A stretch of DNA of 64,000 nt from Candidatus Kerfeldbacteria bacterium (GCA_016182555.1 JACPGJ010000007.1:53-64052); one strand, 5' to 3'; shown: positions 16,436 to 39,437, counted from the stretch's first letter. The notes: generated by a model from the letters alone, not told the origin. Program-made: numbers and translations.

Positions 16436-16902
16436 ACGCTACGTATTATAGCGCAATCTGAACAGTATTTCAATAGCCACACATACTATCTGTAACACAA
16501 CGCCATTCTAACCGCATGCGTAGCGACGGCTCTTTTTTTTGTGACTTGCCTAATATTAGGCAAAATATTGTTGGCGAATTTGAGACGGCTAAAAAATCTG
16601 TGGATAACTTTGATAAAAATCATTTTTCTTACTTGCATAAAAAAATATTCGATCTATACTGCATGATAGATACTATTTTTTCAACACTAACTGAACAGAT
16701 TATTTTTTAAAGCACCTTCTCCAATCACCATGCATTGATTCCACCCAACCAGCGGTAAGGCGATGCCTCGTTAAGAGCATCCACCCAAATCTCCTTTCCT
16801 CTGGTGAATCATTCTGCATTGTGCAGATGAATAATCAGAATCTTTGGTTGTTGGATAGATCCACCAACAAGGATATTCATTGAATTGGAAAGGAGAAGGA
16901 TC

Positions 16903-22161: not shown

Positions 22162-22241
22162 AATATATTATTATTTTACATGAAACTCCTTTTGGCAGCA
22201 AAGGTGTTTATCCTTTGCTGCCAAAAATCTGCTGAATTCTA

Positions 22242-22952: not shown

Positions 22953-23031
22953 AATTTCAAAGTCAGCATTGAAACCCCGAGGATATTATACACAAAAATA
23001 AGTACTAGTAATAGTGTGCGTAGGCAGAGAA

Positions 23032-24150
23032 TTATATTTTCATTTTGTCAAGCAGGCTGAGTAATTTTGATCTATTATACTCATCAAATGGTAACGATAA
23101 TTTTATACTATGATTATTCGCACTAGGGTATGTAATCTTATAACTTGATAAAGGCTCAGCTAAAATCCCATATTTCATAAAATACTGAAACAAATTTTTT
23201 TCTTTAAGATGATCATGTATCACAATTAATGGAACTGCATCATGTGTATTATACCAATATAAACCTATCGCACTTAATTTCGTATAAATTTTTTCTTTAT
23301 ACTTTTTTACATCCCTTCTAACGTCATTTAAACGAAAAAAAACATTATTTGCACATAACGCAACATTTGTAGAATATAAAGAGGGTTCAAATGGGGGGAA
23401 AATATTTTTTATATATGGGGCTATATTATTTGAAAAAATGCCATAGCCTACTCGAAATGAAGCCAAACCGAATCCTTTAGAAAAAGATCTAATCACCGCT
23501 ATATTATTATATTGTTTTATGAGATGTATGATTGATTCTGAATCATCTATAAAATCCCCAAATGCTTCATCAATGAATAATAAAATATTTCTTTTGTGAC
23601 AAAGAATAGCTAGTTTGTGAATATCTTTTATAGGCATCACCCAACCAGTAGGATTATTGGGTCTATCAATATATATTACAGTTGGATTTAAAAAATCAAC
23701 TTTTTTAATAACACTATCAACTATATTAGAAAAATTATTAAATCGGGAAATAAATACTAATTTTCCACCGGCAGATTGAAATTCTGAAGGTATTTCATTA
23801 AACTGCGGTCCTACTCCTAATAATAATCCTGGAGTAAGCAGCTTATGTATAATTCTTTCTGCAATATTGAAGGATCCATGTCCTAAAAAAATATTATCTT
23901 CTAACTCATCTACATTAAATCTTTGTATTATGGAATTTTTTAGATCATTATAAATTTTTATATCTGGATACTTATTTGGATGAAAATTATTTTTTAAAAT
24001 TACAAAAGCTTTATCAATACAATCAAAAAAAATTTCTGGCCCCGAACTCATTCGACAATCCAAATAATTTAAATTATACGAATAATTACTAGCATAAGAG
24101 TCTCTCTTATAATCACAAATAGATTCTTTAATGAAATTATTAGGTTTCAC
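23032..24150 (-). CDS. PLP-dependent aminotransferase, class I/II (HisC / CobD-like)
   Basis: YIDRPNNPTG and RSFSKGFGLASFRVGY motifs. Strongly AT-rich gene. Confidence 0.75.
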   Translation of the reverse strand: MKPNNFIKESICDYKRDSYASNYSYNLNYLDCRMSSGPEIFFDCIDKAFVILKNNFHPNKYPDIKIYNDLKNSIIQRFNVDELEDNIFLGHGSFNIAERIIHKLLTPGLLLGVGPQFNEIPSEFQSAGGKLVFISRFNNFSNIVDSVIKKVDFLNPTVIYIDRPNNPTGWVMPIKDIHKLAILCHKRNILLFIDEAFGDFIDDSESIIHLIKQYNNIAVIRSFSKGFGLASFRVGYGIFSNNIAPYIKNIFPPFEPSLYSTNVALCANNVFFRLNDVRRDVKKYKEKIYTKLSAIGLYWYNTHDAVPLIVIHDHLKEKNLFQYFMKYGILAEPLSSYKITYPSANNHSIKLSLPFDEYNRSKLLSLLDKMKI

Positions 24151-24217
24151 TGTTCTGTAAAAAAATAAACCCCAATTTCTTATACATTAAAAGAAACGTA
24201 TTTGCAATATCAATAGA

Positions 24218-25039
24218 TTATTTATTTTTTATCTCAACTATACGGTCAAAATGTAAAATAGCAATACACATTAAAAAATAAGCAGATAAATAAAGCATAT
24301 CCCCAAACCCATGCGCTATCCATGCTCCGCGATTAACCTGAAAAAGAAAATTAAAATCGGCAAAATATTGGACAACGAGAGCAACAAGAAACAACTGTAA
24401 TTGGGCAAAAACAGCCGAATCTTTAATATTTTTGGAAAAAATCCACAATATCAATGCTAAACCAACGTATGTCGCTTGGCCGAGTGGGTATCCGAGGTCA
24501 AAAAATAATTTGAATGGATGAGCTAAGTCGATATGATAACCGTGTAAAAAAAATCGATATGACAATACATACATCACCAATAACACCGTCCCCATTTGAA
24601 ACTTTTCCACAGGCGTTTTCATGACATCTACAATCCCTGAGCCACGCATCAACTGCATCACCCCATAAATATAAAACGGAATACTTCCGAAATAGCCAAT
24701 ATCGGGCAATGAAGGATATGGCACAGGAATATGCCAAACAATAATATACACACTAAAAAGAGTCTGGCCCAAATTTTGTAATAGCAACCCAACACTAAAT
24801 GCAAAAACAGCTCTTCGTAATAAATGATTCTCTCCTTTCCATGAATATACGATATTCAAACCGCATACACCGCCAAATAAGGCAACCAATTGATAGAATA
24901 CGCCCCAAACCATTTCACTTCGAGGTATGGTAAAAAATGGTGGGAATAACCACCAGATAAAAAAAATCATAAATAGCCCAAAGGCAACACGTGCAGAGCG
25001 ATCTTTTTTTATGAGTGCTATGATAGTATAGAGAATCAT
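24218..25039 (-). CDS. Polytopic membrane protein
   Basis: Multiple hydrophobic helices. Start re-set to ATG 25039 (MILYTIIAL), 2 nt from the upstream stop; the ORF-track start 25138 overlaps the upstream gene by 98 nt. Confidence 0.5.
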   Translation of the reverse strand: MILYTIIALIKKDRSARVAFGLFMIFFIWWLFPPFFTIPRSEMVWGVFYQLVALFGGVCGLNIVYSWKGENHLLRRAVFAFSVGLLLQNLGQTLFSVYIIVWHIPVPYPSLPDIGYFGSIPFYIYGVMQLMRGSGIVDVMKTPVEKFQMGTVLLVMYVLSYRFFLHGYHIDLAHPFKLFFDLGYPLGQATYVGLALILWIFSKNIKDSAVFAQLQLFLVALVVQYFADFNFLFQVNRGAWIAHGFGDMLYLSAYFLMCIAILHFDRIVEIKNK

Positions 25040-25040
25040 A

Positions 25041-26450
25041 TTATGAAGTATGATTTTTTTGTTGCAAAAATACTTTTGTGCCTTCAATCGTTTTTTGCCA
25101 ATAGAGCAAATGCGGTAAATTATGCTGAATGGAGTCATGAAACTCTTTCAAGCCGCGAATATCTCGGCGAGTGAATTGTTTATGGTTTTTATGTTGCCCA
25201 ATGAATACGAGCACCAACAAACGCGACTGCTTCATCACCACCATACAAATCTCTGCTTTCTTTTTCTTCATCAACCTCTGCACAGACGGTGCCATATTTC
25301 GTTCTTGTAACTCATCAAGGAACAGATACCCGCGACGGAGCGCGATGAGTTCTGCAATCACCGGTTCATCAAAAGCCACATACCATTTTGAGTGCGTGGG
25401 GAAAAAACTCTTCAACCGATGCATGTGCTCTTGCTGTACCAAGATCTCTTCCACCGGAGCCTGAATCACCTCTTGAATTGACCCCGCCAATTTAATAATA
25501 AACGATTCCAGCTCATGTGTAGAGTTCAACACGAGATTGGATTCGTGGATGAGCTTAAAAAAATCGATCTCTTCGCGGAAGAAAATGCCATCGAGAAAAT
25601 GTTTTATACGTACCTTCCCCCGTTCGAACAACCACAAAAATAACAACATAGCTACAATTAACCAAATAAATGGATGAATGTGCGCTTCCGATTCTACAAC
25701 GCGATAGACAGAAAAAATACTAACAATATAGAGCGAAGCGAATATAAACAACAAACCACCATAGACAATCGATTTTTTGAAAACAATCCGTACATCCAAA
25801 AATCTATAGCGAGTCATTGCGTATGCGGAACAGGATACAATCCCTAGTGTGGAGAGCATGGTTAATGGGAAAAATTTACGTGTGTGCAATATATCTACAG
25901 CATATAAATTGGTAAAAATCAGTGTACCAAAAGTAATCAGAAACCCATACAGAATAAATTGCGTTTGAGTACGTTTAACAACGTCATTGACTCGCAAATT
26001 TTTAAATAATAATACGCAAGAGCCGAAAATAGCTCCAAGACAATATACAGCAAAAATAATCATTCCCCACCCAGGCATAGGCATAATAATGCCATTAATC
26101 ATTTCTGAATGAGTAAATTGAAATGGTGAAAGTGCAAGTACTGCATTTACTATTGCAAAGGTGGTAAGAAAACGAAATACTCTTTTTGATAGTTTTTCAA
26201 AAACAAAAGAGTACACAAAGAGAAATGTGTACAATAAAAATAACACGATAATAAACATAGTAAGACGAACCAAAAATATATGGTAGTGCAGCAGACTGAT
26301 ATAAAAAACCAGCACCCACAATGCCAAAAAACCACTCATCAACGCAAAATAACGATTCGCCAGCTTCTCGCGGTTAAATTTCCAAGCGTATATCGCAAGC
26401 GTCGAACACCCAATGCAACTAATAATTGTGGCAATCAATAGAATATTCAT
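25041..26450 (-). CDS. 7TM receptor + GAF-like protein, paralog of the histidine-kinase sensor region but lacking HisKA/HATPase
   Basis: YAMTRYRFLDVRIVFKKSIVYGGLLFIFASLYIVSIF aligns to HK YAIIRYRLMDIRTVLTRSLVYALLISIVMSTFGLITF. C-terminus is GAF-like. No kinase motifs. Confidence 0.6.
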   Translation of the reverse strand: MNILLIATIISCIGCSTLAIYAWKFNREKLANRYFALMSGFLALWVLVFYISLLHYHIFLVRLTMFIIVLFLLYTFLFVYSFVFEKLSKRVFRFLTTFAIVNAVLALSPFQFTHSEMINGIIMPMPGWGMIIFAVYCLGAIFGSCVLLFKNLRVNDVVKRTQTQFILYGFLITFGTLIFTNLYAVDILHTRKFFPLTMLSTLGIVSCSAYAMTRYRFLDVRIVFKKSIVYGGLLFIFASLYIVSIFSVYRVVESEAHIHPFIWLIVAMLLFLWLFERGKVRIKHFLDGIFFREEIDFFKLIHESNLVLNSTHELESFIIKLAGSIQEVIQAPVEEILVQQEHMHRLKSFFPTHSKWYVAFDEPVIAELIALRRGYLFLDELQERNMAPSVQRLMKKKKAEICMVVMKQSRLLVLVFIGQHKNHKQFTRRDIRGLKEFHDSIQHNLPHLLYWQKTIEGTKVFLQQKNHTS

Positions 26451-26746
26451 AAATTCATTGTATCATACACCCTCTAAACGATCATTCGAGCCCTACTGCT
26501 TAGGGACGGGCCGAGGTGGAACCCCCACCCAACTCGGCCCGCGACGTCCCCTGTGCATATTCAGTTGTATATCCATACAACACCCCATCCGTGGGGCTGT
26601 CAAATAGCAAAAATTGGCGAAATACAGCCGTCAAACGGTCGCCAAAATACTTTAGCTCTATCCTTAGCCAAAAATACAAAAAAATACGTTATCCACAGAC
26701 GGCTCTTCATCAAACCAAATTCACAAAAAAGCCTAAGAAAACGCTA

Positions 26747-27556
26747 CTATTCACCAAACACAAACCCTTTCTGCCGAGATTCCACAGAGGCATAATCATC
26801 ATTAAAATGCGCAATGACTGTATACTGATATCGCTCTCCAGCGCGCAGCCCACCAACTTCTACCGCAGACCGGCGCACACGACGCAAGGTTTTCACCACG
26901 CGTTCACCGGACGCATCATAAATATTCACGGTATAATACCGAATTTTCCCAGCGGGTTTGCGCCAATCCAATTGCGCTACATACTTTCCGCCATCTGCGT
27001 CACCACGCCCAATCGGTTCATTGCTAAAAATATCATGCCGCACTTGATATTCATCACTCATAGCCACCAACAAACGCGGAACTGGAGGAATCGTTCGCCC
27101 CACAAGCTCCACCACATCTGAAAGAACACCATCACGTTCTGCAACCAGACGAATCGTATATCCCATGTTCTCATCTAACTCGTCAATCACTGCCGACTGC
27201 GCGAGCGTCGTCACACTCGTCACCAACACGCCACTTTTTTTCTCAAATACCTGCAACGTATAGCTCGTTTGCGAAACCCCACTGGTCATATACCGTACAT
27301 CAGAATACCATTCCACTTGCAGCGATGTTGGCGAAGGAGAAACCACATATTTTGGCTCTGGTGCAGCAACAGCTTCCACATTCTGGCCAGTGACATCTGG
27401 TATACCATACGTCACCGACGATGAACCAAGCTCCGGAATACCATAATTCGCTGCCTGCACCGGTGCCCCAGAAACACAAAATACGAAAATACTCACGATA
27501 GCTGCGCTACAGCCGAGTATAGCCACCAAGAATCGATTTGTATTGATAGATTTCAT
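26747..27556 (-). CDS. Hypothetical secreted protein (269 aa)
   Basis: N-terminal signal peptide MKSINTNRFLVAILGCSAAIVSIFVF. No recognised catalytic motif. Confidence 0.5.
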   Translation of the reverse strand: MKSINTNRFLVAILGCSAAIVSIFVFCVSGAPVQAANYGIPELGSSSVTYGIPDVTGQNVEAVAAPEPKYVVSPSPTSLQVEWYSDVRYMTSGVSQTSYTLQVFEKKSGVLVTSVTTLAQSAVIDELDENMGYTIRLVAERDGVLSDVVELVGRTIPPVPRLLVAMSDEYQVRHDIFSNEPIGRGDADGGKYVAQLDWRKPAGKIRYYTVNIYDASGERVVKTLRRVRRSAVEVGGLRAGERYQYTVIAHFNDDYASVESRQKGFVFGE

Positions 27557-27680
27557 ATATTCCTCCGTATATCATTATATTATCATAGAAACAATATAAT
27601 ATACAGCAAAAATGCCCTTTTGTCAATGCTTCCACTTGTGCACAATTGAATCAAATTTTTTGGCTAATATTAGCCTAAAT

Positions 27681-27905
27681 TTATTTCCAATGTTGCCAAT
27701 CAAACCGCGTAATAGATTTTTGAAAAACTGCTGGGTCAAACGACCCGCCCAATAGAACATACATTTTTGACGAAACAAACCCAACCACTGCAAAGAGAAT
27801 CAATACCAATATAGTAAGTCGTATGCGCGTTGCTCGCTCTTTGCGCTGTAATGCGGTGGTGGAATTCCGCTCAGCGCCCGCTGCCATTTTTTTTTGCTCG
27901 TTCAT
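27681..27905 (-). CDS. Small membrane protein (74 aa)
   Basis: Single TM helix ILVLILFAVVGFV. ORF only. Confidence 0.3.
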   Translation of the reverse strand: MNEQKKMAAGAERNSTTALQRKERATRIRLTILVLILFAVVGFVSSKMYVLLGGSFDPAVFQKSITRFDWQHWK

Positions 27906-28101
27906 GATATACTAAGCCAATATCTATAGATTGAGTGTAACACAATGTACCGACCCAAGCGAAAAAATATTTTCGTGGAGCGCCGGCAGCGGTGACGAAT
28001 CCAGTACCGGCACACTTTCTCTCACACGAATTCAGTAATTATCCACATGCACTAAAATTTGACAGAGAACAGGAAAAGATGTATTGTCTATTTATAATAC
28101 T

Positions 28102-28653
28102 TCAAAGAGGATTCACCCCGCGGTGCGTCCTCTTTATTTTATACTCAAGTTTTCGTTTCAAATGATTGATATCTGTAAAATGTGCTCCGACAAGCTGCTT
28201 AATATTTCTAGCCGTTTTCTGTGTGTTGGCAATAACCCGCACCGTTCTATTTTTTTCCAGGAGATACTCCAGCAGAATACAAAAATCTCCATCACCACTC
28301 ATCAGAATCATTCCGCTATATTGCCCTAACGTTCTCATAGCATAAAATGTCAAATCAACATCGCAATTTGCTTTTCTTCTCACCTGACCATTGCTCTGCT
28401 TGTGGTAAATAACTGGTTTCAATACGGTGATATACCCCATTTCATCGAGCTTTGTATAAAATTTTTGTTGCTTAATATTTTTTTCGTCTAAGCCACCGAA
28501 ATAAAAAATTTTCTCTACCTGGTATCTTTCTTGTAAATACTGATACAGTTTTTCAAAATCGAGCTTCCAGTCTTCACCATCTCGTGTGACTGTGCCATAA
28601 ATGATATTTGATGCGTCAATAAATGCGTAAATCGGTCTGTGATTATTATTCAT
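28102..28653 (-). CDS. NYN-domain (LabA-like) putative RNase
   Basis: AFIDASNI ... CDVD ... SGDGDF acidic catalytic residues typical of NYN/LabA. Confidence 0.7.
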   Translation of the reverse strand: MNNNHRPIYAFIDASNIIYGTVTRDGEDWKLDFEKLYQYLQERYQVEKIFYFGGLDEKNIKQQKFYTKLDEMGYITVLKPVIYHKQSNGQVRRKANCDVDLTFYAMRTLGQYSGMILMSGDGDFCILLEYLLEKNRTVRVIANTQKTARNIKQLVGAHFTDINHLKRKLEYKIKRTHRGVNPL

Positions 28654-28758
28654 ATATTTGAACTACCGCGGAGGGAGAATGTGGCCCACCCAAACGCAAA
28701 CCATTCTCTCGCCCCACGGCAGCAGACGATGCATTCATCTGCCACCACTACGCCCGAC

Positions 28759-29166
28759 TTACGCAACCGTCACTTCTTCTTCCAAGAACGGAATGGTTTC
28801 TAGCTCTTCCGCATCCATTTCATTCTTCGCTTTCTTCACCACCAACACACGGTCGATGGAACGCACCACCACCTCGGTGAGGTATTTTTTTGTTCCGTCT
28901 TCCCCAACCCAGCTCCGAGAATGCAGTTTGCCTTCCAGCACCACTTGGTCGCCTTTCTTGCAATGCTCTTCCACAAAGACCGCAGAGTTCGTCCATGCGA
29001 CGCATTTATGGTAGTCCACGCCTTTATTCCACTCTCCATCCTTGCCTTTCCAGGAAAAATTAGTGGCGATACTAAACGTTGCCTTTTTCTGCCCCGACGG
29101 CAAAATTTTTGCTTCCGGATCAGCCGTAAGTTGGCCAATCATCGTGACACGATTCAAATTGCGCAT
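28759..29166 (-). CDS. ssb: Single-stranded DNA-binding protein
   Basis: NRVTMIGQLTADPE ... FSIATNFSW.GKDGEW ... HKCVAW OB-fold pattern. Acidic tail with IPF. Confidence 0.85.
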   Translation of the reverse strand: MRNLNRVTMIGQLTADPEAKILPSGQKKATFSIATNFSWKGKDGEWNKGVDYHKCVAWTNSAVFVEEHCKKGDQVVLEGKLHSRSWVGEDGTKKYLTEVVVRSIDRVLVVKKAKNEMDAEELETIPFLEEEVTVA

Positions 29167-29440
29167 AATGATTATGCTTAAGAATTAAATCAGGGCGCGG
29201 CGCCTAGTTACGGAGGAGGGTACCAAGCGCACACGACACCCGTGAGCCACACACGCAGCTCACCACGAGAAGGTTCTTCAATTTAAGAATAAAGTAGAGT
29301 TGTTGGACACCCCTCTCCTTTCAAAACAAGCTCAATATAGAACCTTCCCGATGGTAAATTGTCAACAGCTTTTTTTAGACGGCGGTAAAATAACCAAATT
29401 TATTTCTCAATAAATAGAGGTATTTTATGCCTATTGAACG

Positions 29441-29489
29441 CTGTTAAAAAAATAGAGACGTCGCCAAAAAATTGGGGACGTCTCTATTT
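29441..29489 (-). terminator. Perfect 13-bp hairpin (AAATAGAGACGTC / GACGTCTCTATTT) with an A-run on the plus side, giving a U-run on the minus strand. Terminator-like with no annotated gene to terminate.
   Basis: Inverted repeat and flanking homopolymer seen directly. Confidence 0.4.
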
Positions 29490-29625
29490 CCGCCTATGAG
29501 TATATACCAACAGAAAACTCTGTCAAACACGATAAGTGGCATCGTCTGTGGATATCTCTATTATTCTGTTTATTGAGTTGAACTGGATTTGATTTTTCCA
29601 TTCATATAGTATATACTCAATTTAT

Positions 29626-29877
29626 ATGAATAATGAGAAGAAAAATTTAGAATATGCCAATCAAGAAGCGTTGCTTGCCCAACCGATGAGCAGCGTTCCA
29701 AAATTTGCAACAAACGTTAATTTCAATAAATTAACGAATGGCAGTATCATTATCTCCTTCTTTACTCAAGCATTTCCAGATGCTCCAGCTGTACTGATTG
29801 AAACCATCATTGTTGATGAACAGCACGCGAAAGACATTGTAAAAATTTTACAAGAAGTTATTGATAAAAAAATATGA
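29626..29877 (+). CDS. Small hypothetical protein (83 aa), first of three coupled small ORFs; possibly DUF3467-like
   Basis: EYANQ ... F.TQAF pattern is weak. ATGA overlap with the next ORF. Confidence 0.4.
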   Translation: MNNEKKNLEYANQEALLAQPMSSVPKFATNVNFNKLTNGSIIISFFTQAFPDAPAVLIETIIVDEQHAKDIVKILQEVIDKKI

Positions 29878-30062
29878 ACACAACACCTATCGTGATTGAA
29901 CAATCATATCGTGCTACCTCTTCTGTAAAATCAAGTTATTCCGCTGGTACGTTGAAAAACAACCATAAGAATAGTATAAAAGAGGCGCTTCAACATGGTA
30001 TTTCGCTGTTGAGAAATGCAAGGAAAAAATCCCATGCGACACACAAGGAGTTGTTTAGATAA
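29874..30062 (+). CDS. Small hypothetical protein (62 aa)
   Basis: Translationally coupled on both sides. Confidence 0.35.
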   Translation: MNTTPIVIEQSYRATSSVKSSYSAGTLKNNHKNSIKEALQHGISLLRNARKKSHATHKELFR

Positions 30063-30337
30063 TGTCATCTATGGATGAAAAAGAAAAGGAACTTATTGAA
30101 TTGATGAAAGAATGGAAGGATGAGGTCAAGGGAATTGCTACTGATTATAATACAGCCATCGCAACACTGGATGAAAATAATAAAAAATGGTGGGTAGTGT
30201 ATAAACCATTCATTATTACTATAATCTCATTTTTCTTCCTTATTTTTGGATTTATTATCGTGAGTAAAACTACCCAATGGTGTGAATTAACCATGAGCTT
30301 TCCGAATGGTGTAGTGGCTTCAAGCAGGTGCGAATAA
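30062..30337 (+). CDS. Small hypothetical membrane protein (91 aa)
   Basis: TM helix IITIISFFFLIFGFIIV. TAATG coupling with the previous ORF. Confidence 0.4.
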   Translation: MSSMDEKEKELIELMKEWKDEVKGIATDYNTAIATLDENNKKWWVVYKPFIITIISFFFLIFGFIIVSKTTQWCELTMSFPNGVVASSRCE

Positions 30338-30383
30338 TTTTTTGCCTCAAATTTTGCCCTGCAGAAACGAGTGTATATAAAAC

Positions 30384-30941
30384 CTATTCCATCAGTGGAT
30401 CGCGATACTTGCGATCTTCTTTTGCTTTACGTGCTAACAATTCACGAATAAAATCCGCTTTATTCATCTTCTGCTTCTCGCTGCGCCAGGTTAAATAGCG
30501 GTCCACCCGCGGGGACAAACGCAATGTGTATTTTATTGATACCGCTTCATCATGCTCTTGCCGCAACGGGTCATGCATACCAATAAAATGATTCACCGCT
30601 TCCGCCAAGCTCGTTTCCATATACGAAAATGTTTTAACCGGTTTGGGTGTCGCTTTTTTCCGAATATATTTCAATAACAAACGCGGAGATTGATTCTTTG
30701 CATACAAACACAATGTCGGCTTATCGGCTAAAATAGCTTGAGCCAAAATAAAATGCATCAACGGATTCGGTTTCGTAATTTCAATAATGAGTAAATCTAC
30801 CTGGTCCAGGAAAAATGCAACGCCTTCGGGCAAGCGTTTTCGTTTGCGAATTTTTTCGGGCGTCAATACCGAAACACCAGCCTCACGACAGGCGCGAAGG
30901 ATAGCACCACCAGTTTTTTCATCATGAATGTAGACTCTCAT
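30384..30941 (-). CDS. Nucleoside 2-deoxyribosyltransferase-like domain fused to C-terminal ribbon-helix-helix-like segment
   Basis: FFLDQVDLLIIEITKPNPLMHFILAQAILADKPTLCLY resembles the PF05014 core. C-terminal RLSPRVDRYLTWRSEKQKMNKADFIRELL is RHH-like. Confidence 0.45.
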   Translation of the reverse strand: MRVYIHDEKTGGAILRACREAGVSVLTPEKIRKRKRLPEGVAFFLDQVDLLIIEITKPNPLMHFILAQAILADKPTLCLYAKNQSPRLLLKYIRKKATPKPVKTFSYMETSLAEAVNHFIGMHDPLRQEHDEAVSIKYTLRLSPRVDRYLTWRSEKQKMNKADFIRELLARKAKEDRKYRDPLME

Positions 30942-31930
30942 CGCCGTTTTTTTATTGATTTTGCTCGTTTCACTGGTTTAACTCGCCTCAAATGTTCTCC
31001 AATAAAATCCTGATCCATGGCGTTTTTTAACTTTGCCAGCACAGATCGCTGACCAGAAAGCCAGGTGAATTTTGCGGCAGCACAATCAGGCGTTAACCCG
31101 GTGATCTTCGTTACTCGGCCATTGGTATACAACAAAACAGCAGCAGAGGTTAATACCAATGTTGGCACCTTTTTCGGCAGCAAGCGCGCCGCAGACACAG
31201 GCAGAGAAATGTGGCGACTATCCAAAATAAGGCCACGCGTTTTCTTTTCAACTTGCAGATCTTTGATATCCCCAGCCGTTAACACTTGATATAAGACGCG
31301 TTCACCGTATGCGACGTAAATCTCTGGCTTAACCCGTTCAAGCGCGTGCTGATTTTCTAATAGCTGAATGCCAAAATCAATATACCCGCCACCCACGCTG
31401 CCATGAGCACTACTGGCTGGATAAATACCCGGATGATCTTTGTCTTCACTCACCAATGCATGGGTGACCGGAATAATGGAAGAACCAAACGCGATAAAAC
31501 TGCCGGCCGCCTGAGCCGTGACCATTTGTGTGGCATTCACAATACTCGCTTTCAAACCAATATCTGGATATTTCGCTCCTGCAGCAATGGTAGCCAGATC
31601 ATCGTGTGAAATGGTGCTAATGACGATCGGTTTGCTGAGACGGCCCAACATAAACGCGAGCAAGTTCGCGTTATAGAGCACGTGCGCATAATCCATGGTG
31701 ACAATAAACCCATCGTAGCGGTTCCATTCGCGCTGAATACGCCGAGCTATGCGTTGTAAAATTTGCGGTTGGTCGGGTGCGGTGTGGCCAGCAATAAACA
31801 TCGGCTCTGCGGTGGCGACCATTTCTAATTCAATAAACTCCTTGTTCCACCGGTTCAAGGCATTTTGGTTTTTTAATGGATGTTGTCGACCGCCGGCATA
31901 CAGCAAGGCAATCTGGTGCTTTTCAAGCAT
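30938..31930 (-). CDS. Divergent asparaginase/glutaminase-family-like protein
   Basis: IALLYAGG and IVTMDYAH occupy the positions of the TGGTIAG and HGTDTM motifs but are degenerate. Confidence 0.45.
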   Translation of the reverse strand: MLEKHQIALLYAGGRQHPLKNQNALNRWNKEFIELEMVATAEPMFIAGHTAPDQPQILQRIARRIQREWNRYDGFIVTMDYAHVLYNANLLAFMLGRLSKPIVISTISHDDLATIAAGAKYPDIGLKASIVNATQMVTAQAAGSFIAFGSSIIPVTHALVSEDKDHPGIYPASSAHGSVGGGYIDFGIQLLENQHALERVKPEIYVAYGERVLYQVLTAGDIKDLQVEKKTRGLILDSRHISLPVSAARLLPKKVPTLVLTSAAVLLYTNGRVTKITGLTPDCAAAKFTWLSGQRSVLAKLKNAMDQDFIGEHLRRVKPVKRAKSIKKRR

Positions 31931-31994
31931 GCAGTGATGATACTGTGTTTTTTGATGTAATGCAACATTTTTCTGGTTTTATACAGTTGACAAA

Positions 31995-32040
31995 TAGTAT
32001 ACTTTAGATTATACTGATTACGAGTATACTATTTATAACC
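31995..32040. promoter_or_regulatory. Array of TATACT boxes (~12-bp phasing) in the divergent promoter region
   Basis: TAGTATACTTTAGATTATACTGATTACGAGTATACTATTTA seen directly. Near-identical copy at 33471-33512. Confidence 0.5.
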
Positions 32041-32049
32041 GCTAAAAAT

Positions 32050-33444
32050 ATGAAATTCATTAATAGGCACAATGAGCTCTCCGCATTAGAAGATCGTTTT
32101 CGAAAAAATCAATCCGAATTCTTTATTGTGTATGGAAAACGACGTGTCGGAAAAACAGAACTGATTAAACAATTCATAAAAGATAAGCCATCAGCATACT
32201 TTTTAGCTGATAAACGAAGCATGAAACTGCAATTACAAGAAGTGGGACGAATTATTGGTGAGCAATTCAACGATGAAGTGCTGATGCGTGCCGGTTTTGA
32301 AGAATGGTTGGAGGTATTTCAATATTTGGGAAAACATGTGCGCCCAAACAAACCGTTTATTTTCGCGATTGATGAATATCCGTATCTGGTGGAAATAGAC
32401 AAATCGATCAGCTCCATATTTCAAAAAGGGTGGGATGAGTATCTGAAAAACAGTGGAGTGTGCTTTATTCTCTCTGGTTCGAGTATCGCCATGATGGAAT
32501 CTGAAACGCTCATCTACACTGCCCCGCTCTATGGACGAAGAACCGGTCAGCTGCTGTTGACTCCCCTATCGTTTACCCAAGCCCATGAATTTTTTCCTGC
32601 CACATCATTCCAAGAATTTTTATCGATATTTACCATTATGGGTGGCATGCCCGCCTATCTACTTCAATACCATGCGCATAAAAGCAGGCAAGAAAATATG
32701 AGGGATGCTATTTTTGAAAAAACAGCATTTTTACACAATGAAGTGGAGTTTACCTTGAAAGAAGAACTGCGTGAACCAAAACAATATATGGCGATTATTG
32801 AAGCGATTGCCAAGGGTTGTGCGCAATTTGGTCATATTTCGAACGCAACTGGTTTAGAAAAAAATACACTCACAAAATATCTGCATGTATTACAGAAGTT
32901 ACAATTGATCGCGCGTGAGGTTCCGGTGAGCGAAAAACACCCACAGAAGTCACGTAAAAGTATCTATACTATTTCTGATCAATTCTTTCGTTTTTGGTTT
33001 CGGTTTGTGTATCCATATAAAAGTGACATTGAAATTGGACGCTTGAATGAAGTAGAAAAAAAATTACATGAAGAATTTTCGCTATTAGAAAGTGTCACGC
33101 ATGAACAAATCTGTCGTGATGATTTGGTGAATCAGTATAGCAAACAGTTATTTCCCTTTGAACGCGTGGGGCGTTGGTGGAATAATGACGAAGAAATTGA
33201 TATTGTGGCGCTCAATACACCAACAGATTCCGTGCTCTTTGCCGAATGTAAGTGGTCAAATAAGGCCGTGGGGACAAATGTATATGACGATTTGAAACGG
33301 AAAGCTGCGCTGGTGGATTTTGGAAGCATGAATCGAAAAGAATATTACGCGTTATTTAGCAAAAGTGGTTTTACGAAAGCGATGATTGAAAAAGCCAAAA
33401 AGGAGAAAGTGCTGCTCATTGAAGAAGATCGCTTACTGAAATAA
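32050..33444 (+). CDS. AAA+ ATPase (archaeal-ATPase PF01637-like + DUF234)
   Basis: FINRHNELSALEDRF ... YGKRRVGKTEL Walker A. Length 464 aa. Confidence 0.8.
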   Translation: MKFINRHNELSALEDRFRKNQSEFFIVYGKRRVGKTELIKQFIKDKPSAYFLADKRSMKLQLQEVGRIIGEQFNDEVLMRAGFEEWLEVFQYLGKHVRPNKPFIFAIDEYPYLVEIDKSISSIFQKGWDEYLKNSGVCFILSGSSIAMMESETLIYTAPLYGRRTGQLLLTPLSFTQAHEFFPATSFQEFLSIFTIMGGMPAYLLQYHAHKSRQENMRDAIFEKTAFLHNEVEFTLKEELREPKQYMAIIEAIAKGCAQFGHISNATGLEKNTLTKYLHVLQKLQLIAREVPVSEKHPQKSRKSIYTISDQFFRFWFRFVYPYKSDIEIGRLNEVEKKLHEEFSLLESVTHEQICRDDLVNQYSKQLFPFERVGRWWNNDEEIDIVALNTPTDSVLFAECKWSNKAVGTNVYDDLKRKAALVDFGSMNRKEYYALFSKSGFTKAMIEKAKKEKVLLIEEDRLLK

Positions 33445-33470
33445 ATGATATGTGGCTATTTATCATTTTT

Positions 33471-33512
33471 TATACTATTTAGTATACTTTCGATTATACT
33501 GTTTACATACTG
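33471..33512. repeat. Second phased TATACT box array (TATACTATTTAGTATACTTTCGATTATACTGTTTACATACTG)
   Basis: 22 of 24 core positions match the array at 31995-32040. Confidence 0.5.
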
Positions 33513-33537
33513 ATGCTTGTTGCTGGTGGGTATTTTC

Positions 33538-33589
33538 TTGATATTCTAAATAACAACATAAGCACACATCTTGTTATTTAGAATATCAA
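33538..33589. repeat. Perfect 19-bp inverted repeat TTGATATTCTAAATAACAA / TTGTTATTTAGAATATCAA with a 14-nt spacer
   Basis: Seen directly. No U-tract follows. Operator- or MITE-end-like. Confidence 0.5.
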
Positions 33590-33970
33590 TTGCGTTAGAT
33601 TAATGATGAATGGCATTTGGTGCCTGCCCCGGTGTCGGCGACAAAACAGATGATTGACTATCAAGAACGCATTGCGGCAAAGCGCAAAAAAACCAGTGTG
33701 CCCTATTACGACGAATATGGCTCGCGCCTGGTTGCTATGCAGAAAAGTTTAAATAATACCATTTTGAATATTTGATAAGGAATTTATAGAAAAACAGACT
33801 TCTACTGATTTTTATTTTGGCTAATATTAGATAAATAATAACAGACTGTGCATAAAATTCATTGAAAAGTATGATGAAGTATGATAAATTAGATGAGCAA
33901 AAATTCGTTTTTTGAAAATTTTTTGGTTTTACCACCTAAGCCACCCAGCAAAGGTGGAAGGAGCAGACAA

Positions 33971-35713
33971 ATGAATTCGAATGAAATCGCCCAGATTCTG
34001 GGCAGCGGTAAAAGTGAGACCCAGCCCTTCGGTTTCCGGGTGCTCGTTGACCCGACCGAGGGTTTTGAGCGTTATGAAACCGTATGGGCGGAGAACGGAG
34101 GCCTGCGGGCCTTCTTGAGGAAGCTGGAAGAGATCGTTGCTCATTATGGTTGGGGCGCAGTCAAGCACCACAACCATAACAACGATTTCGCCAGTTACTT
34201 CACACACCTGGGAGTGCAATCCCAGGGTTCGGCCCTTCATCAGATACAGGCGCTCGTGCGGAATCTGGAAACACAGACGCAGGGTCCATCTCGGTGGGCC
34301 CGAACTGCAAATGTGTATCAGATCTTTCCGAGAGCGTTCAACCTCTCGGGCTGGAGGGAATTCCACGACAGACCACCCGGCACCGCAAAACCGTTTTTCG
34401 AAGAATGGGCTGCGGAGGACTTCGAAACCCTCAACGACCTCGGCTTCGATACGGTCTGGCTGATGGGGACTTTCCCTATCGGCAAGCGCGGCGCCAAGGG
34501 TGGCGAGACCGGAAATGCCGGCTCGCCCTATGCAACTACCGACCACCAGGCGCTGGAACTCAGCCTGGGGACCGAAGCGGACTTCAAACGCTTCGTTGAC
34601 ATGGCCCACGAGTGTGGAGTTCGGGTGATCCTCGACATCATCCCGAACCACACCTCGCTGGACTCGCGGCTCCTGCGCGAGCATCCAGAGTGGTTCCTTC
34701 ACCACACAAACCCGGTCGCCGGAGAGACCGCGCCCTTCGGTTCGTTCGAGCATATCGACGGAGAAGGCAAACTCTGGTGGATCCGACTCGCAGGATGCGA
34801 GTACTACGGCAAACTCACGCCGTGGTGGGATGTTGCTCAGTTGAACCTGGCACATCCTGCCGTGCGGGAGTACGTCGTAACTACGGCCTGCCGCTGGATT
34901 CGAGACTTCGGCATCGATGGGTACAGAATCGACATGGCCTATCAGCTCCTCAACAGCTACTACTCTCGCAACTGGAAGGTCCAGATGCCAGAGCGGGAAC
35001 TGCTTGAGCAGATGATCACGGCCGTGCGCGAACTGCGCCCCGATGCCGGCTTCTTCGGAGAAGCCTACGGCCGCGAAGAAGACCTTTTTCTTTGCGGATG
35101 TGACACGACACTGCAGAAATGCACGTGGTTGGACGGGCTTCGGTGGCACCAGGGCCGTGGATGCAACGTGGAGCGGATCCGAAAGGAAATTCGCAACGCG
35201 GCAACAATCCACGCCCAAACCGACGGCCCGGGTGGCTACATCTTCGTGGGAAACCACGATGAAATGCCACACACGGAGGCGTACGGTCCGTGGACACGAG
35301 GCTGCGCAGTCCTCACGATATGCCAGCCAAACGGACTGCTGATCTTCAACGGTCAGGAGATCGAATTCAGCCAGCAGTCGAAGGACGACTGGCCGAAACC
35401 GATTCCGTTCACGCGGCCGGTCAAGATCGACTGGGCAGGTGCTGACCCGGAAACCGCAAGGTTCTACCGGTGGGTGTTTCGTACTTCGAAGAGCATTAGA
35501 GAAGAGCTCGGAGATGTACAGATGCACCCGCTGGAAGATCTCAACGGCAACTGGGTGGGCTACGCGCTCACCGGCAAAGACACCACGACGCGGTACCTCG
35601 TCATCGCCAACCCAACGGACCGGGCAACGATGGCGCATGTGTACCACACCGATCTCGGGATCAATCACTCGACACCACTCATGCCATACGGCTACAAAGT
35701 GGTTCGGGTCTGA
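33971..35713 (+). CDS. GH13 alpha-amylase-family glycoside hydrolase, GC-rich gene
   Basis: GH13 regions DIIPNHTS, GYRIDMAYQ, GEAYG and FVGNHDE. ATG 33971 follows GGAAGGAG. ORF-track start 33893 lies in AT-rich flank. A 579-aa open antisense frame reflects high GC. Confidence 0.85.
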   Translation: MNSNEIAQILGSGKSETQPFGFRVLVDPTEGFERYETVWAENGGLRAFLRKLEEIVAHYGWGAVKHHNHNNDFASYFTHLGVQSQGSALHQIQALVRNLETQTQGPSRWARTANVYQIFPRAFNLSGWREFHDRPPGTAKPFFEEWAAEDFETLNDLGFDTVWLMGTFPIGKRGAKGGETGNAGSPYATTDHQALELSLGTEADFKRFVDMAHECGVRVILDIIPNHTSLDSRLLREHPEWFLHHTNPVAGETAPFGSFEHIDGEGKLWWIRLAGCEYYGKLTPWWDVAQLNLAHPAVREYVVTTACRWIRDFGIDGYRIDMAYQLLNSYYSRNWKVQMPERELLEQMITAVRELRPDAGFFGEAYGREEDLFLCGCDTTLQKCTWLDGLRWHQGRGCNVERIRKEIRNAATIHAQTDGPGGYIFVGNHDEMPHTEAYGPWTRGCAVLTICQPNGLLIFNGQEIEFSQQSKDDWPKPIPFTRPVKIDWAGADPETARFYRWVFRTSKSIREELGDVQMHPLEDLNGNWVGYALTGKDTTTRYLVIANPTDRATMAHVYHTDLGINHSTPLMPYGYKVVRV

Positions 35714-35786
35714 AACCGAGACAACGACTCCGGGTCACGCAAGGAAACCCGGAGGTCCCCGTTCGCCACACAAAGGCAACGGGAGA

Positions 35787-35826
35787 GGGCGGCACATGCA
35801 TCTGCAATGGCTGCCCTGTTTTTTTA
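35787..35826 (+). terminator. Imperfect GC hairpin (GGGCGGCA...TGGCTGCCC) followed by T7
   Basis: Seen directly after the GH13 stop. Confidence 0.45.
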
Positions 35827-35887
35827 CTTTTTTATTTACCTTTGCTAGAGTTGTTAAGTTCAAGAAAAAATTATTCACAAATTTTTT

Positions 35888-37120
35888 ATGGAAGACAAAC
35901 AATTACTCATTGAAGAAGGATACAAGCACAGCACCGCGCTGTTGCGAGAAAATGCTACGGAATACGGTATGCTGGCCGCTTCACCAAAAAGCGAAGAAGG
36001 AAAACGCAAAGAATACACTTCCCTCTTCAGCCGCGACATTGGTGTGTCTTGTTTAGGCATGTTTGCCTCTGGCGACGAAGAACTGATCAGCATTGGTGAG
36101 CGGTCTTTAGAAAACCTCGCCAAAGCGCAATCTAAACTTGGCCAATTTCCTTTCTTCTCTGAACCAGGAAAACAGCAAATTCAATGGTGGATGCCAGGTT
36201 CACTTGATAGCACAATTTGGTGGTGCATTGCGGTATTGAAAAATTTAGAACTCACTGGCAAGCGCGATTTCTACGAAAAATATAAAGAAAATCTAGAAAA
36301 AGCATTTACCTGGTTGCAATATCAAGATACGAATAATGATGGATTAGTGGAACAAGGTGAATGTTCGGATTGGGCAGATGAAATGCCTCGCATGGGCGCA
36401 GTGCTCTATTCGAATGCGCTGTGGTATTGGTTGGTGCGTTTGCGAGTGGAAGTAGAAGGGCGAACCGATTTAGAACCGATGCGGCAGCGTGTGTATGAAG
36501 CGGCCAACACCATGTTGTGGGTGCATAAACGAAATGATAGTGCGTTGAATTATGTGCCGGATAACAATTATGTACGTGATAACTTTTTTGCGGCGAATAT
36601 TATTGAATGGACAAATACGCGTGCAGTTTTTTTACCATACTACCTTGGTTTTGTTTCTCATAAATCGTTTGAAATGCGTTGCGATGTGTATGGAAATATT
36701 CTTGCATGCATTAGCGGGCTTGCAGACGCAGAAAAAGCAAAAGAGATTACGGATTTTGTTGTCCGCTCCGGAATTAACTTGCCCTATCCGGTGAAGGTAT
36801 TGTATCCACCTATTTACCCCGGTGAACAAGACTGGCGCGATTATATGTCTAAAGGTCGTCAGAATTATCCATGGCAATATCATAACGCCGGTATCTGGCC
36901 ATATGTTGGTGGGTTCTGGGTGTATTGGTTAGCAGAGCATAACCCCACACTCGCAAAAGAAGAACTGTATCGCCTGGCACTGGCAAATAAAGTGGGTGAT
37001 TGGGAATTTAATGAATACCTCCATGGTCAACACGGCACTGCCATGGGAATCTCATTTCAGTCTTGGAACATGGGTATGTATATTGCCGCGTATACTGCGG
37101 TGCAGAAAACAGCGGCATAA
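35888..37120 (+). CDS. Six-hairpin glycosidase (GDE_C / GH100 / GH63-like amylo-alpha-1,6-glucosidase family)
   Basis: YHNAGIWPYVGGFW resembles the YHNG.VWP signature. DWADEMPR also present. Confidence 0.65.
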   Translation: MEDKQLLIEEGYKHSTALLRENATEYGMLAASPKSEEGKRKEYTSLFSRDIGVSCLGMFASGDEELISIGERSLENLAKAQSKLGQFPFFSEPGKQQIQWWMPGSLDSTIWWCIAVLKNLELTGKRDFYEKYKENLEKAFTWLQYQDTNNDGLVEQGECSDWADEMPRMGAVLYSNALWYWLVRLRVEVEGRTDLEPMRQRVYEAANTMLWVHKRNDSALNYVPDNNYVRDNFFAANIIEWTNTRAVFLPYYLGFVSHKSFEMRCDVYGNILACISGLADAEKAKEITDFVVRSGINLPYPVKVLYPPIYPGEQDWRDYMSKGRQNYPWQYHNAGIWPYVGGFWVYWLAEHNPTLAKEELYRLALANKVGDWEFNEYLHGQHGTAMGISFQSWNMGMYIAAYTAVQKTAA

Positions 37121-37212: not shown

Positions 37213-37485
37213 ATGATCAAAACCATGCAAGTGACTAGCCTTTCTTCTAAGGGTCAAGTCGTTATTCCCGCTACTGTTCGCCAAGCGTTAAATATTTCCA
37301 GTGGTTCAAAGCTACTTATTTTTAGTGATGGCGGAAATATTTTACTCAAACCGATCATGGCACCAAAAGCCAAAGAATTTGATACACTTATTCAAGAAAG
37401 CCGAAAAATAGCAAAAAAAACGAAACTGAACAAGAAGGATATAACAAAAACGATAAAAAACATTCGTCATGCGCGTAGTTCTTGA
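37213..37485 (+). CDS. vapB: AbrB/SpoVT-family antitoxin (VapB-like)
   Basis: SKGQVVIPATVRQALNISSGSKLLI swapped-hairpin motif. Confidence 0.7.
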   Translation: MIKTMQVTSLSSKGQVVIPATVRQALNISSGSKLLIFSDGGNILLKPIMAPKAKEFDTLIQESRKIAKKTKLNKKDITKTIKNIRHARSS

Positions 37486-37879
37486 CACGAATGTACTCAT
37501 TTCAGGAATCTTTTGGGCAGGAACACCTTTCCGTATTCTTGAATTATGGAATAACAAAAAAATCAATCTTATAGTCACTGAGGAAATACTACAAAAATAT
37601 GTTGCTGTTCTTCGGAGGCATGAGGACCATTCAGGAATAGCAGATGAATGGTTGATGTTATTTTCCCAAAGATTTCAGATAATAGAGAACCAACATCATT
37701 TGCGACTTTCACGCGACCCCTATGATGACATGTTTATTAATGGCGCGATAACTGGCCGGGCAAAATATATTATTAGTGGCGATAAAGATTTGTTGACGCT
37801 TCATTCTGTAAAAAATATTCGTATCGTTTCCCCTGCGCAATTTTTAAAAATATTCACGGAAGAGACAAGCAAAAAATAA
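37469..37879 (+). CDS. vapC: PIN-domain toxin (VapC-like)
   Basis: MRVVLDTNVLISGIF ... acidic residues. Overlaps vapB by 17 nt. Confidence 0.8.
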   Translation: MRVVLDTNVLISGIFWAGTPFRILELWNNKKINLIVTEEILQKYVAVLRRHEDHSGIADEWLMLFSQRFQIIENQHHLRLSRDPYDDMFINGAITGRAKYIISGDKDLLTLHSVKNIRIVSPAQFLKIFTEETSKK

Positions 37880-37899
37880 AACAGCTTACCCATCAAAAC

Positions 37900-38748
37900 T
37901 TATGCAGATAGTGAATCCAAACAACTAATCTTTTTTACTTTTGCAAAACTTTCCCAGGATAAAAAATGTGTTCCCTTCAAAATTTTCTTCTGTTCTTCGT
38001 GTGGCAAAAAATAATTTGAACCAATGTCATATCGCGGCACGGTGAGTGAAGGAAAACGGCGAACAAAACGTAATTCATTTTTTTCTGTGTACACAAAAAG
38101 ATATGAAGGCACGGGCTGTCGTTGATTGATAATGGAAAAACCAAAAATACACAGGCTATTGGATTCACGCTGAGACGAACCACCGCTTCCTCCACGACGA
38201 ACATATTTTTTATCCTTCTCTGTCCAGATAAACAGATTGTCGTACGGGTTCCTCCAATCCAGATGGTTGATTGGCGCTGGCAAACGATAATAGCGTTCTC
38301 GATCGATTCGATAACGCGGCTTCATGAGGTTCGTTTTCTTTCTATATTTTTGAAGAATCTGTTTTTTGTATCGCGGTTCTAGCTCGCATTGAATAATATA
38401 CTCATCAATTTCTTTTTTCTCTCCTTCTTTTTTGCGTAGAATCTGATACTTTTTCAACCACTGCAGGTACAAATTACTTCTGTTCCACTGGTCATACTCT
38501 TGAGTGAAAAACTGATAGAGTGCTTCATGATAGAGCGAAAGACGAGGAGTGCGTGTGTGCTGTACATATTCTTTTTTACTCCTTAATTCACTGCGCAAAT
38601 TATCAATAATAATAGTAACCGTGTATGGCTGCTGACTGCGAACACGTTTTGCTATATCCGTGTGCGAACGATCGTGACGCGACTCCCATTGTATTCCCTT
38701 CAATAAAACAGGATCATACAAAACATATTTGAGCGGAATATTTTTCAT
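37900..38748 (-). CDS. Hypothetical protein (282 aa), basic, between two TA modules
   Basis: ORF only, no recognisable motif. Confidence 0.4.
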   Translation of the reverse strand: MKNIPLKYVLYDPVLLKGIQWESRHDRSHTDIAKRVRSQQPYTVTIIIDNLRSELRSKKEYVQHTRTPRLSLYHEALYQFFTQEYDQWNRSNLYLQWLKKYQILRKKEGEKKEIDEYIIQCELEPRYKKQILQKYRKKTNLMKPRYRIDRERYYRLPAPINHLDWRNPYDNLFIWTEKDKKYVRRGGSGGSSQRESNSLCIFGFSIINQRQPVPSYLFVYTEKNELRFVRRFPSLTVPRYDIGSNYFLPHEEQKKILKGTHFLSWESFAKVKKISCLDSLSA

Positions 38749-38767
38749 AGCAGAGAATGAAAAACTG

Positions 38768-39205
38768 TTATTTTTTGGCGAATCGTTTATACGTATTCGC
38801 TAACTGTTTGTCGAGAGTAACTAAATCAAGTTTGGCATGTTCTGTAAGAAATAAGAGTGACCAATCAGTGAAAGATAATTTTGGTCGAAATTGATGTTTC
38901 TTCATATATACAGTAATTTTTTCAAGCAAACTTTCATCTACGGACAAAATAGATATCGTTGGTTGACGTTGAATATACTCCATGAAATCCTGTGCCAAGG
39001 TATGTTTATTTTTGTACAACAACACGGTCATCACTTCTTGAATAACCAATGAAGAGATAATAATTGGATAATATTGTTCAATCATAAATTCAAGAAATTC
39101 CTTTGCCAGTTCAGATTGTGTTTCACCCTTGTCAAAATACGCTATCCAAATATTCGCATCGGTCAAGTATGGTTTATCGTCCGATGCCATAGACAATTTT
39201 GTCAA
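38768..39205 (-). CDS. PIN-domain toxin
   Basis: LTDANIWIAYF ... FTDWSLLFLTEHAKLDLVTLDKQL. Confidence 0.7.
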   Translation of the reverse strand: MTKLSMASDDKPYLTDANIWIAYFDKGETQSELAKEFLEFMIEQYYPIIISSLVIQEVMTVLLYKNKHTLAQDFMEYIQRQPTISILSVDESLLEKITVYMKKHQFRPKLSFTDWSLLFLTEHAKLDLVTLDKQLANTYKRFAKK

Positions 39206-39437
39206 TTTGCTCGCTCAAATTTGTCGTTCGGCTTCGGAAACGTCGTTTTTCTAAATCTGCAAGGGTGATAGATTTTTTTAAACGCTTAGTGGGAGCATTC
39301 AACGGCATAAATATACCGATCGGCTTGCCATGCTTCACGACCGTATATGTCTTTTGCAATGGCTTTTGCGTGATATCGGCAAAATGACGAATAAATTCAC
39401 GAGTGGATATAATAGTTTCTTGTTGTTGTGTGTGCAT
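39174..39437 (-). CDS. Phd/YefM-like antitoxin
   Basis: TISTREFIRHFADI ... TYTVVKHGKPIGIF. Overlaps the PIN gene by 32 nt. Confidence 0.55.
   Translation of the reverse strand: MHTQQQETIISTREFIRHFADITQKPLQKTYTVVKHGKPIGIFMPLNAPTKRLKKSITLADLEKRRFRSRTTNLSEQIDKIVYGIGR

Follow-up and report, generated by a model that had tools for sequence, protein, structure and literature searches.

A compositionally foreign GH13 gene, probably acquired from an Elusimicrobiota-type clade, in the chromosome of a Candidatus Kerfeldbacteria bacterium

The genome of a Candidatus Kerfeldbacteria bacterium, a member of the Candidate Phyla Radiation (CPR, Patescibacteria), holds a gene whose composition sets it apart from its surroundings. 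The stretch analysed here, referred to as the window, comprises 64,000 nucleotides (GCA_016182555.1, JACPGJ010000007.1:53-64052), and the gene encodes an enzyme of glycoside hydrolase (GH) family 13, the alpha-amylase family. Where did this gene come from, and what might it do for its bearer? Our analyses indicate that it is probably a horizontally acquired single-gene segment from an Elusimicrobiota-type clade, set in a CPR chromosome with its own ribosome-binding site, 3′ untranslated region (UTR) and terminator. An island of high guanine-plus-cytosine content (GC), together with relatives that are almost all from Elusimicrobiota, makes horizontal acquisition the most likely origin. The segment and its parts are as follows.

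33932..35816, plus strand: GC-rich foreign segment of 1,885 bp, GC 0.586, with a leader carrying a Shine-Dalgarno sequence, the GH13 open reading frame (ORF) and a structured 3′ UTR (change points, GC profile, codon usage)
33862..33890, plus strand: candidate promoter, TTGAAA-17-TAAATT with TG, in the native AT-rich spacer (consensus match only)
33956..33963, plus strand: Shine-Dalgarno-like GGAAGGAG, inside the GC-rich segment (sequence reading)
33971..35713, plus strand: GH13 alpha-amylase-family gene, 580 amino acids (aa), without signal peptide (PF00128, deposited protein, alignment, AlphaFold2)
35714..35825, plus strand: GC-rich 3′ UTR with three hairpins (RNA folding)

The GH13 gene is compositionally foreign. 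Maximum-likelihood change points under a two-segment likelihood fall after 33931 and after 35816, and the island between them has a GC of 0.586, compared with 0.426 ± 0.042 in 293 other 1.8-kb windows (maximum 0.497; z = 3.8). In 200-nt windows between ~33950 and ~35800, GC holds at 0.56-0.62; the flanks have ~0.30-0.47 and the whole window ~0.43. GC at third codon positions (GC3) is 0.709 in the annotated ORF (from 33971) versus 0.398 ± 0.073 in 30 other ORFs (z = 4.2), and 0.694 when the long ORF is read from 33893. The synonymous-codon log-likelihood under native usage is similarly displaced (z = -4.75). The relative synonymous codon usage of the gene correlates at -0.08 with native genes and at 0.57 with relatives' genes of similar GC3.

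The anomalous segment is a whole small transcription unit, with a Shine-Dalgarno-bearing leader, an ORF and a terminator stem. The ATG at 33971, which is the start of the deposited protein, comes 7 nt after GGAAGGAG. Beyond the stop codon, the 3′ UTR folds with a free energy of -51.3 kcal/mol (z = -3.84; equally stable shuffles, 0/200), and its third hairpin (35786-35817), followed by T7 (35819-35825), forms an intrinsic terminator. Because the entire unit is GC-rich, Shine-Dalgarno sequence and 3′ UTR hairpins included, and its edges are sharp, an inserted fragment fits better than codon selection. Expression may start in the native AT-rich spacer, where the promoter-like sequence at 33862..33890 is a possible driver of the gene. 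A search of Rfam gave nothing above gathering scores. These measurements agree with an original prediction, made by a model from the sequence alone, which had judged the gene ~60% GC by eye, placed its start at the compositional boundary and noted a GC hairpin with T7 past the stop (the last of the three found here). The check that it proposed, windowed GC and codon usage, sets the gene statistically apart from the rest of the window, as the three z-scores above indicate.

The relatives of the gene belong to another lineage, again as anticipated. With each GTDB species represented by one genome, a scan yielded 248 species-level relatives, and the best 80 were classified: 75 are Elusimicrobia/Elusimicrobiota metagenome-assembled genomes (MAGs), the other five are MAGs with no title beyond 'bacterium', and none of the 80 bears a CPR label. 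Several of them are named NC_groundwater. In a search of 5.8 billion proteins, the best non-self match is 39% identical and the named matches are Elusimicrobia. No CPR homologue of the GH13 protein was found among these proteins, which include those of the JGI metagenome holding a syntenic relative (P0183), and this absence argues for a lineage-specific gain. The nearest relatives are 31-43% identical at 84-99% coverage. Gene GC minus locus GC is 0.017 ± 0.015 in the best 80 loci (maximum 0.046) and +0.160 in the window. The relatives' gene GC tracks the host genome, from 0.34 to 0.72.

The window protein shares full-length homology, the conserved motifs and the C-terminal domain with the Elusimicrobiota GH13 clade (HY553_17350, HY611_09100, A2016_05320). 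These proteins are 645-750 aa long and begin with signal or lipoprotein-like peptides, whereas the window copy starts after that region. In the window copy, ~35 residues of the N-domain are also deleted, and the loop formed by residues 383-399 is rewritten. Compared with its aligned relatives, the gene has lost the 5′ end encoding the signal peptide and ~60-80 N-terminal residues, a change that would have come with the transfer. As the window protein starts past the signal or lipoprotein-like region of its relatives, the product would be cytoplasmic and not exported. A search of the literature on Elusimicrobia, GH13 and groundwater turned up nothing.

Lateral gene transfer into CPR genomes is known for RuBisCO, hydrogenases, PFK and hexokinase (Jaffe et al. 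2020, PMC7304191). Like those genes, the present one is metabolic, sparsely distributed and carried by a CPR genome, with relatives outside the CPR. In contrast to them, the GH13 gene, which is known from a single genome, is still strongly non-native in composition. The gene transfer is clean but of a known and fairly ordinary type, and the enzyme belongs to an uncharacterised clade.

Assignment of the protein to GH13, which the original prediction had also made, is confirmed by PF00128 (81 bits, cut-off 22, E = 1.4e-22) and by the catalytic triad, D321 (GYRIDMAYQ), E364 (FFGEAYG) and D430 (FVGNHD). Conserved sequence region (CSR) I reads DIIPNH at 222-227. Residues N226, H227, R319, D321, E364, H429 and D430 are invariant in an alignment of the window protein and 15 relatives (16 sequences). 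The catalytic machinery is intact, with D321 as predicted nucleophile, E364 as acid/base and D430 as transition-state stabiliser, together with H227, R319 and H429. The AlphaFold2 model (predicted local distance difference test 77.9, predicted template modelling score 0.79) has high confidence in the barrel and C-domain and low confidence in the N-terminal ~105 residues. In the model, the protein adopts a (beta/alpha)8 barrel with domain B and a C-terminal beta-sandwich, as expected of GH13. Foldseek matches many GH13 structures with probability 1.00 (~1e-22), and template modelling scores reach 0.58 on the query and 0.75 on the target. Assignment of function by fold was set aside, as the Foldseek scores of GlgE, TVAII/neopullulanase and AmyB are indistinguishable. 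NCBIfam equivalogs all score far below cut-off for this protein.

The closest characterised enzymes are found by sequence. The best solved relatives are 4GKL (6.7e-29) and 3DHU (4.5e-26), with the next at 3e-13, and a family profile against solved structures gives the same two at 3.1e-41 and 2.2e-35. They stand ~13 orders of magnitude ahead of the other solved GH13 chains listed. Both, 4GKL (Thermotoga neapolitana AmyB) and 3DHU (Lactiplantibacillus plantarum), are GH13_48 maltogenic amylases, which release maltose from alpha-1,4-glucans in an exo-acting manner (PMC11239784); the signature definitions of GH13_48 and GH13_49 used here are from the same source. With GH13_48 the window protein shares a CSR-V ending in L-[DN] (VAQLN, 288-292; [LVIF]-[DN] in aligned relatives) and a CSR-VII ending in G-Q (...IFNGQE; relatives vary, with GSQ, GSA, GGQ and NGA), as well as the catalytic triad and, in the model, the A-B-C fold. 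It differs in the hallmark Cys before the nucleophile, which is Ile320 in the window protein and Val in the 15 aligned relatives (mostly Val in the clade). Further differences are an extra N-terminal region of ~105-145 residues, modelled at low confidence, and a Foldseek identity to 4GKL of just 18-19% across the aligned fold. Because two CSR signatures are present but the hallmark Cys is absent, the protein is best placed beside GH13_48 and not within it.

Two other placements were considered and rejected. In the comparison with GH13_49, the group of the Haloarcula japonica alpha-amylase, the window protein has a CSR-II ending in Y-Q, Gly363 before E364 and Gly at the CSR-IV Glu position (FVGNHD), and carries none of the three markers; the NCBIfam model MalA_Halo scores 58.5 bits against a cut-off of 875. 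The GlgE (GH13_3) maltosyltransferases appear as second-tier sequence matches and among the top Foldseek matches (4U33, 3.7e-23). However, identity to them is 17-21%, Foldseek does no better than for neopullulanase or TVAII, and the N-terminal domains PF11896 and PF21702, found only in second-tier matches, are absent in the window protein and 16 close relatives.

CPR bacteria keep few catabolic functions, and carbohydrate-active enzymes are among them. For the present enzyme, the most likely activity is hydrolysis of alpha-1,4-linked glucans or malto-oligosaccharides. The cell would take up such glucans or oligosaccharides, the enzyme would hydrolyse them by analogy with GH13_48, and the released sugars would enter glycolysis, for which genes are encoded in the window.

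Several observations weigh against this account of transfer and function. No convincing direct repeats flank the island, no integrase or transposase adjoining it is encoded among the neighbouring genes, and the window's only tRNA gene lies at 52546, 17 kb away. Contigs carrying the closest relatives of the downstream GH100-like gene, which is described below, show no other similarity to the window upstream of that gene (L006, L097, L007, L008, L098), so no empty site is available for comparison; of the syntenic relative L096, the part compared ends at the equivalent of window ~24800. Substrate and product are assigned by homology at roughly 20% overall identity to characterised enzymes. The identity of merely 31-43% to the nearest relatives implies that the donor has not been sampled. 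In a neighbour-joining tree with 100 bootstraps, the window protein is nested in the Elusimicrobiota radiation in 47/100 replicates and groups in 97/100 with three long-branch proteins (P0015-P0017). The latter come from genomes of ~42-45% GC in which their gene composition is native (loci including L094 10001..12124 and L093 142..1983), and the grouping possibly reflects long-branch attraction. P0015 comes from GCA_964580395.1 and P0017 from GCA_040765395.1; the taxonomy of all three could alter the donor story. One of them, P0017, resembles the window protein in having no signal peptide. Naming a donor by phylogeny was given up, since the tree does not separate a position nested among Elusimicrobiota sequences from one basal to them. 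The donor search suggested by the original prediction therefore succeeded in finding Elusimicrobiota-type relatives and fell short of a specific lineage; from sequence comparison, the donor may be named no finer than 'Elusimicrobiota-type'. An integron cassette, a miniature inverted-repeat transposable element and att-site edges were also ruled out, given the lack of flanking direct repeats and a 3′ UTR made of three separate hairpins and not of one attC-like structure.

The long branch, the low identity and the lack of robust nesting would also suit a gene that has long resided in the CPR lineage, by vertical descent or ancient gain, with its high GC kept by selection or local bias. The window offers a control for this possibility in a second single-gene GC island, an M23 peptidase gene with an LGFP repeat (16885..17973, plus strand; GC 0.557), whose GC3 of 0.69 and codon z of -4.8 resemble the GH13 anomaly. 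Its orthologue (L096 8001..9011), on the 318-kb JGI contig Ga0172278_1290, which is syntenic with window 7926-24829, retains a GC3 of 0.66, against 0.29-0.44 in its neighbours, at 53% protein identity, and another related contig (L097) carries a further GC-rich ORF. As the M23 gene stays GC-rich in a diverged syntenic relative, composition alone does not date the GH13 gain, and the high GC of the island is no proof of a recent arrival. The M23 anomaly either persists across deep divergence or reflects repeated replacement of the gene at one locus. Nevertheless, long residence of the GH13 gene is unlikely. The protein search returned no CPR homologue even from the metagenome of the syntenic relative, its best match being 39% identical, and none of the best 80 of 248 relatives is labelled CPR or Patescibacteria. 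A sharp-edged GC-rich unit that includes the Shine-Dalgarno sequence and the 3′ UTR hairpins also suits insertion more than codon selection. Transfer would then have run into the CPR lineage from outside.

A quite different explanation is an error of assembly or binning, in which an Elusimicrobiota-like genome fragment was stitched into a CPR contig. Logan assemblies, which are independent of the deposited MAG, bear on this directly (L012 and L009 from run SRR12113422, L010 from SRR12113419). L012 corresponds to window 22050..34002, spans the left edge and reaches 70 nt into the GC-rich segment; L009 (33986..41505) and L010 (35551..37274) both span the right edge, and all three are 100% identical to the window. 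With both junctions reproduced in independent assemblies, a chimera is unlikely. A remaining point against contiguity is that L012 and L009 break within the first 32 nt of the GH13 ORF, precisely at its left end, with only 17 nt in common (33986/34002); the closest named relatives, moreover, are carried by Elusimicrobia MAGs named NC_groundwater. However, a chimera would require two junctions, both back into one genome. The right junction lies within continuous contigs of two runs and the left junction, at 33932, within L012, and Logan contigs end at arbitrary sites too, such as 35551 and 41505. Elusimicrobiota sequences reach at most 43% identity to the GH13 gene, so that no genome stands out as a source of contamination. 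We consider such an error highly improbable, and acquisition of the gene from an Elusimicrobiota-type clade remains the preferred explanation.

The locus is a cleanly delimited case in which one transcription unit is still foreign in composition, and it is evidence that a reduced, host-attached genome continues to gain genes. The enzyme represents an uncharacterised, almost Elusimicrobiota-specific GH13 clade near GH13_48 and may be a candidate for a new subfamily. The M23 control carries a warning for genome scans, as single-gene high GC in this lineage does not itself date a transfer. Among groundwater CPR lineages, Candidatus Kerfeldbacteria is reported to be one of those with the strongest attachment to hosts (PMC7906910). 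The GC-rich genes, GH13 and possibly the M23 peptidase, might on this basis be host-to-episymbiont transfers, an idea that we regard as speculative and improbable. If it were true, the foreign gene would be a sign that the host is Elusimicrobiota-like, with NC_groundwater Elusimicrobia MAGs among the relatives, and an enzyme lacking a signal peptide would let the symbiont digest host-derived alpha-glucan in its own cytoplasm. In a sharper variant, repeated replacement of GC-rich genes from the host at fixed loci would explain a GC-rich M23 gene in two diverged genomes.

The segment is flanked, and on its opposite strand overlapped, by four further features.

32050..33444, plus strand: ATPase_2/DUF234 ATPase gene, native upstream flank (domain match; on Logan contig L012)
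33599..33772, plus strand: 58-codon open frame, with a TTG-started 52-aa ORF at 33617..33775; orphan with native-level GC (composition, homology searches)
33929..35668, minus strand: 579-aa antisense ORF, codon-phased with the GH13 frame and judged a shadow (ORF scan)
35888..37120, plus strand: GH100-like (alpha/alpha)6 glycosidase gene, 410 aa, native, outside the foreign segment (PF12899, profile versus PDB)

The downstream neighbour has native composition (GC 0.443, GC3 0.421), and its homologues, 55-81% identical, occur across Patescibacteria, including Levybacteria, Woesebacteria and Falkowbacteria. It matches PF12899 (66.3 bits, cut-off 23.6) and GDE_C (27.7 bits, cut-off 21). The best PDB match of its family profile is Anabaena Alr0819 (5Z73; 4.5e-21, query 17-403), while the archaeal debranching enzyme is marginal (0.006). 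With the GH100 invertases (Anabaena InvA/InvB 5GOO/5Z73, Arabidopsis CINV1 6TTJ), the neighbour shares a full-length profile alignment in which its invariant E376 aligns with the Glu of PEYYDG and its invariant D164 lies one position off the Asp of MIDRR; we take this Glu and Asp to be catalytic, from structural work on InvA. It is nevertheless distant from these enzymes and ~50 residues shorter, and its Pfam alignment is limited to the C-terminal 40% of the model. The neighbour is thus native and CPR-wide, an invertase-like protein of GH100 type. Its closest relative, at 79% identity, lies on contig L097, which carries a GC-rich ORF (GC 0.61, GC3 0.70) and a second partial GH100-like copy at the contig end (16..447, 6367..6684).

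The original prediction had described a native six-hairpin neighbour serving as a partner for alpha-glucan use. Native it is, but the partnership does not hold. In its most explicit form, the idea would be a two-gene module in which a GH13 glucanotransferase or amylase and an amylo-1,6-glucosidase make up a split 'indirect' debranching system, like the eukaryotic glycogen debranching enzyme (GDE). The two genes run in the same direction with 174 nt between them, JGI labels the neighbour's homologues 'glycogen debranching enzyme', and a weak hDGE_amylase match of the GH13 protein (PF14701, 25.8 bits, residues 205-267 only) stands beside the GDE_C match of the neighbour. The hDGE_amylase score, however, is below the Pfam cut-off of 27, and the neighbour's family aligns with GH100 invertases over the full length and only marginally with the archaeal GDE. 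The strong terminator between the genes also means that a functional module is not supported. Nor is the pairing conserved. In five other contigs with a GH100-like gene, unrelated genes precede it and no GH13 gene is adjacent (one has fructose-bisphosphate aldolase and phosphoglycerate kinase), and three contexts of GH13 relatives (two Elusimicrobia, one JGI/Logan contig) place the gene beside a GH1 gene with phosphotransferase system genes or beside another GH13, with no six-hairpin gene. A split eukaryotic-type debranching enzyme was accordingly rejected as very unlikely, and the adjacency of the two genes looks coincidental.

A 579-aa antisense frame had also been pointed out, and it is indeed present. 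It is open because the GH13 gene contains 0 TTA/CTA/TCA among 581 codons; other A-ending codons are common in it (GCA 11, GGA 13, CCA 9). A real overlapping gene would be favoured by the rarity of such openness, as 11 homologues with GC3 0.65-0.75 have 1-7 TTA/CTA/TCA codons (4.6 expected, Poisson P(0) 0.011) and 0/28 homologues with GC3 0.6-0.8 have none, and the Logan gene caller chose the antisense strand. Yet the frame has no Pfam match, and its exact codon phase with a sense gene of strong homology and intact active site is the classic geometry of a shadow ORF. Six of the 45 homologues with GC3 ≥ 0.8 are fully open in antisense too, and the zero-codon statistic is post hoc. There is next to no chance that this frame is a gene in its own right. 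It is mainly a codon-phased shadow of the GC-rich gene, and its complete openness, somewhat unusual, is a minor point. On L009, positions 1..1683 (window 33986..35668, minus strand), the Logan caller annotated a 561-aa antisense ORF in place of GH13, a mis-call that illustrates how a gene finder trained on the AT-richer host is misled by the GC-rich segment.

Upstream of the island, the stretch 33600-33770 had been read as a GC-rich C-terminal tail of a missing gene. This did not stand up. Its GC of 0.39-0.41 equals background and is above only that of the surrounding 0.30 spacers. The 58-codon frame has no match in Pfam or NCBIfam, and HMMER over 1.84 billion representative proteins found itself and one repeat protein, with a score inflated by repetition, so that the tail of a lost gene was rejected. 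The long spacer upstream of the island also holds a 22-nt inverted repeat (33538..33589; 95% complementary, 8-nt loop), forming an AT-rich hairpin. It is single-copy in the window, and its sole Rfam match, to mir-234, is sub-threshold and shape-driven.

The identity of the host as Candidatus Kerfeldbacteria follows from the core genes of the window and from the name of the MAG under which the GH13 protein was deposited (MBI2410757.1, HYV32_02610; 100% identity over 580 aa), on a contig of 293 kb. These core genes are typical and comprise RecJ, phosphoribosyl pyrophosphate synthase, iPGM, enolase, phosphoglycerate kinase, isoleucyl- and arginyl-tRNA synthetases, RecO and tmRNA. A PfkB kinase, an ADP-forming acyl-CoA synthetase and tRNA-Asp are encoded as well. 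Around the island, AAA ATPase genes and toxin-antitoxin pairs are abundant, and the GH13 gene sits in what looks like a variable region. A toxin-antitoxin cluster at 37213..39437 comprises MazE/PIN_3 and a PIN gene with a small upstream ORF, with AAA_14/DUF4143 and ATPase_2/DUF234 ATPases as flanks. An outlier in the opposite direction is a class I/II aminotransferase gene (23032..24150, minus strand), which has a GC of 0.27 and a GC3 of 0.17 and lies within a 21-24 kb stretch of GC 0.28-0.37.

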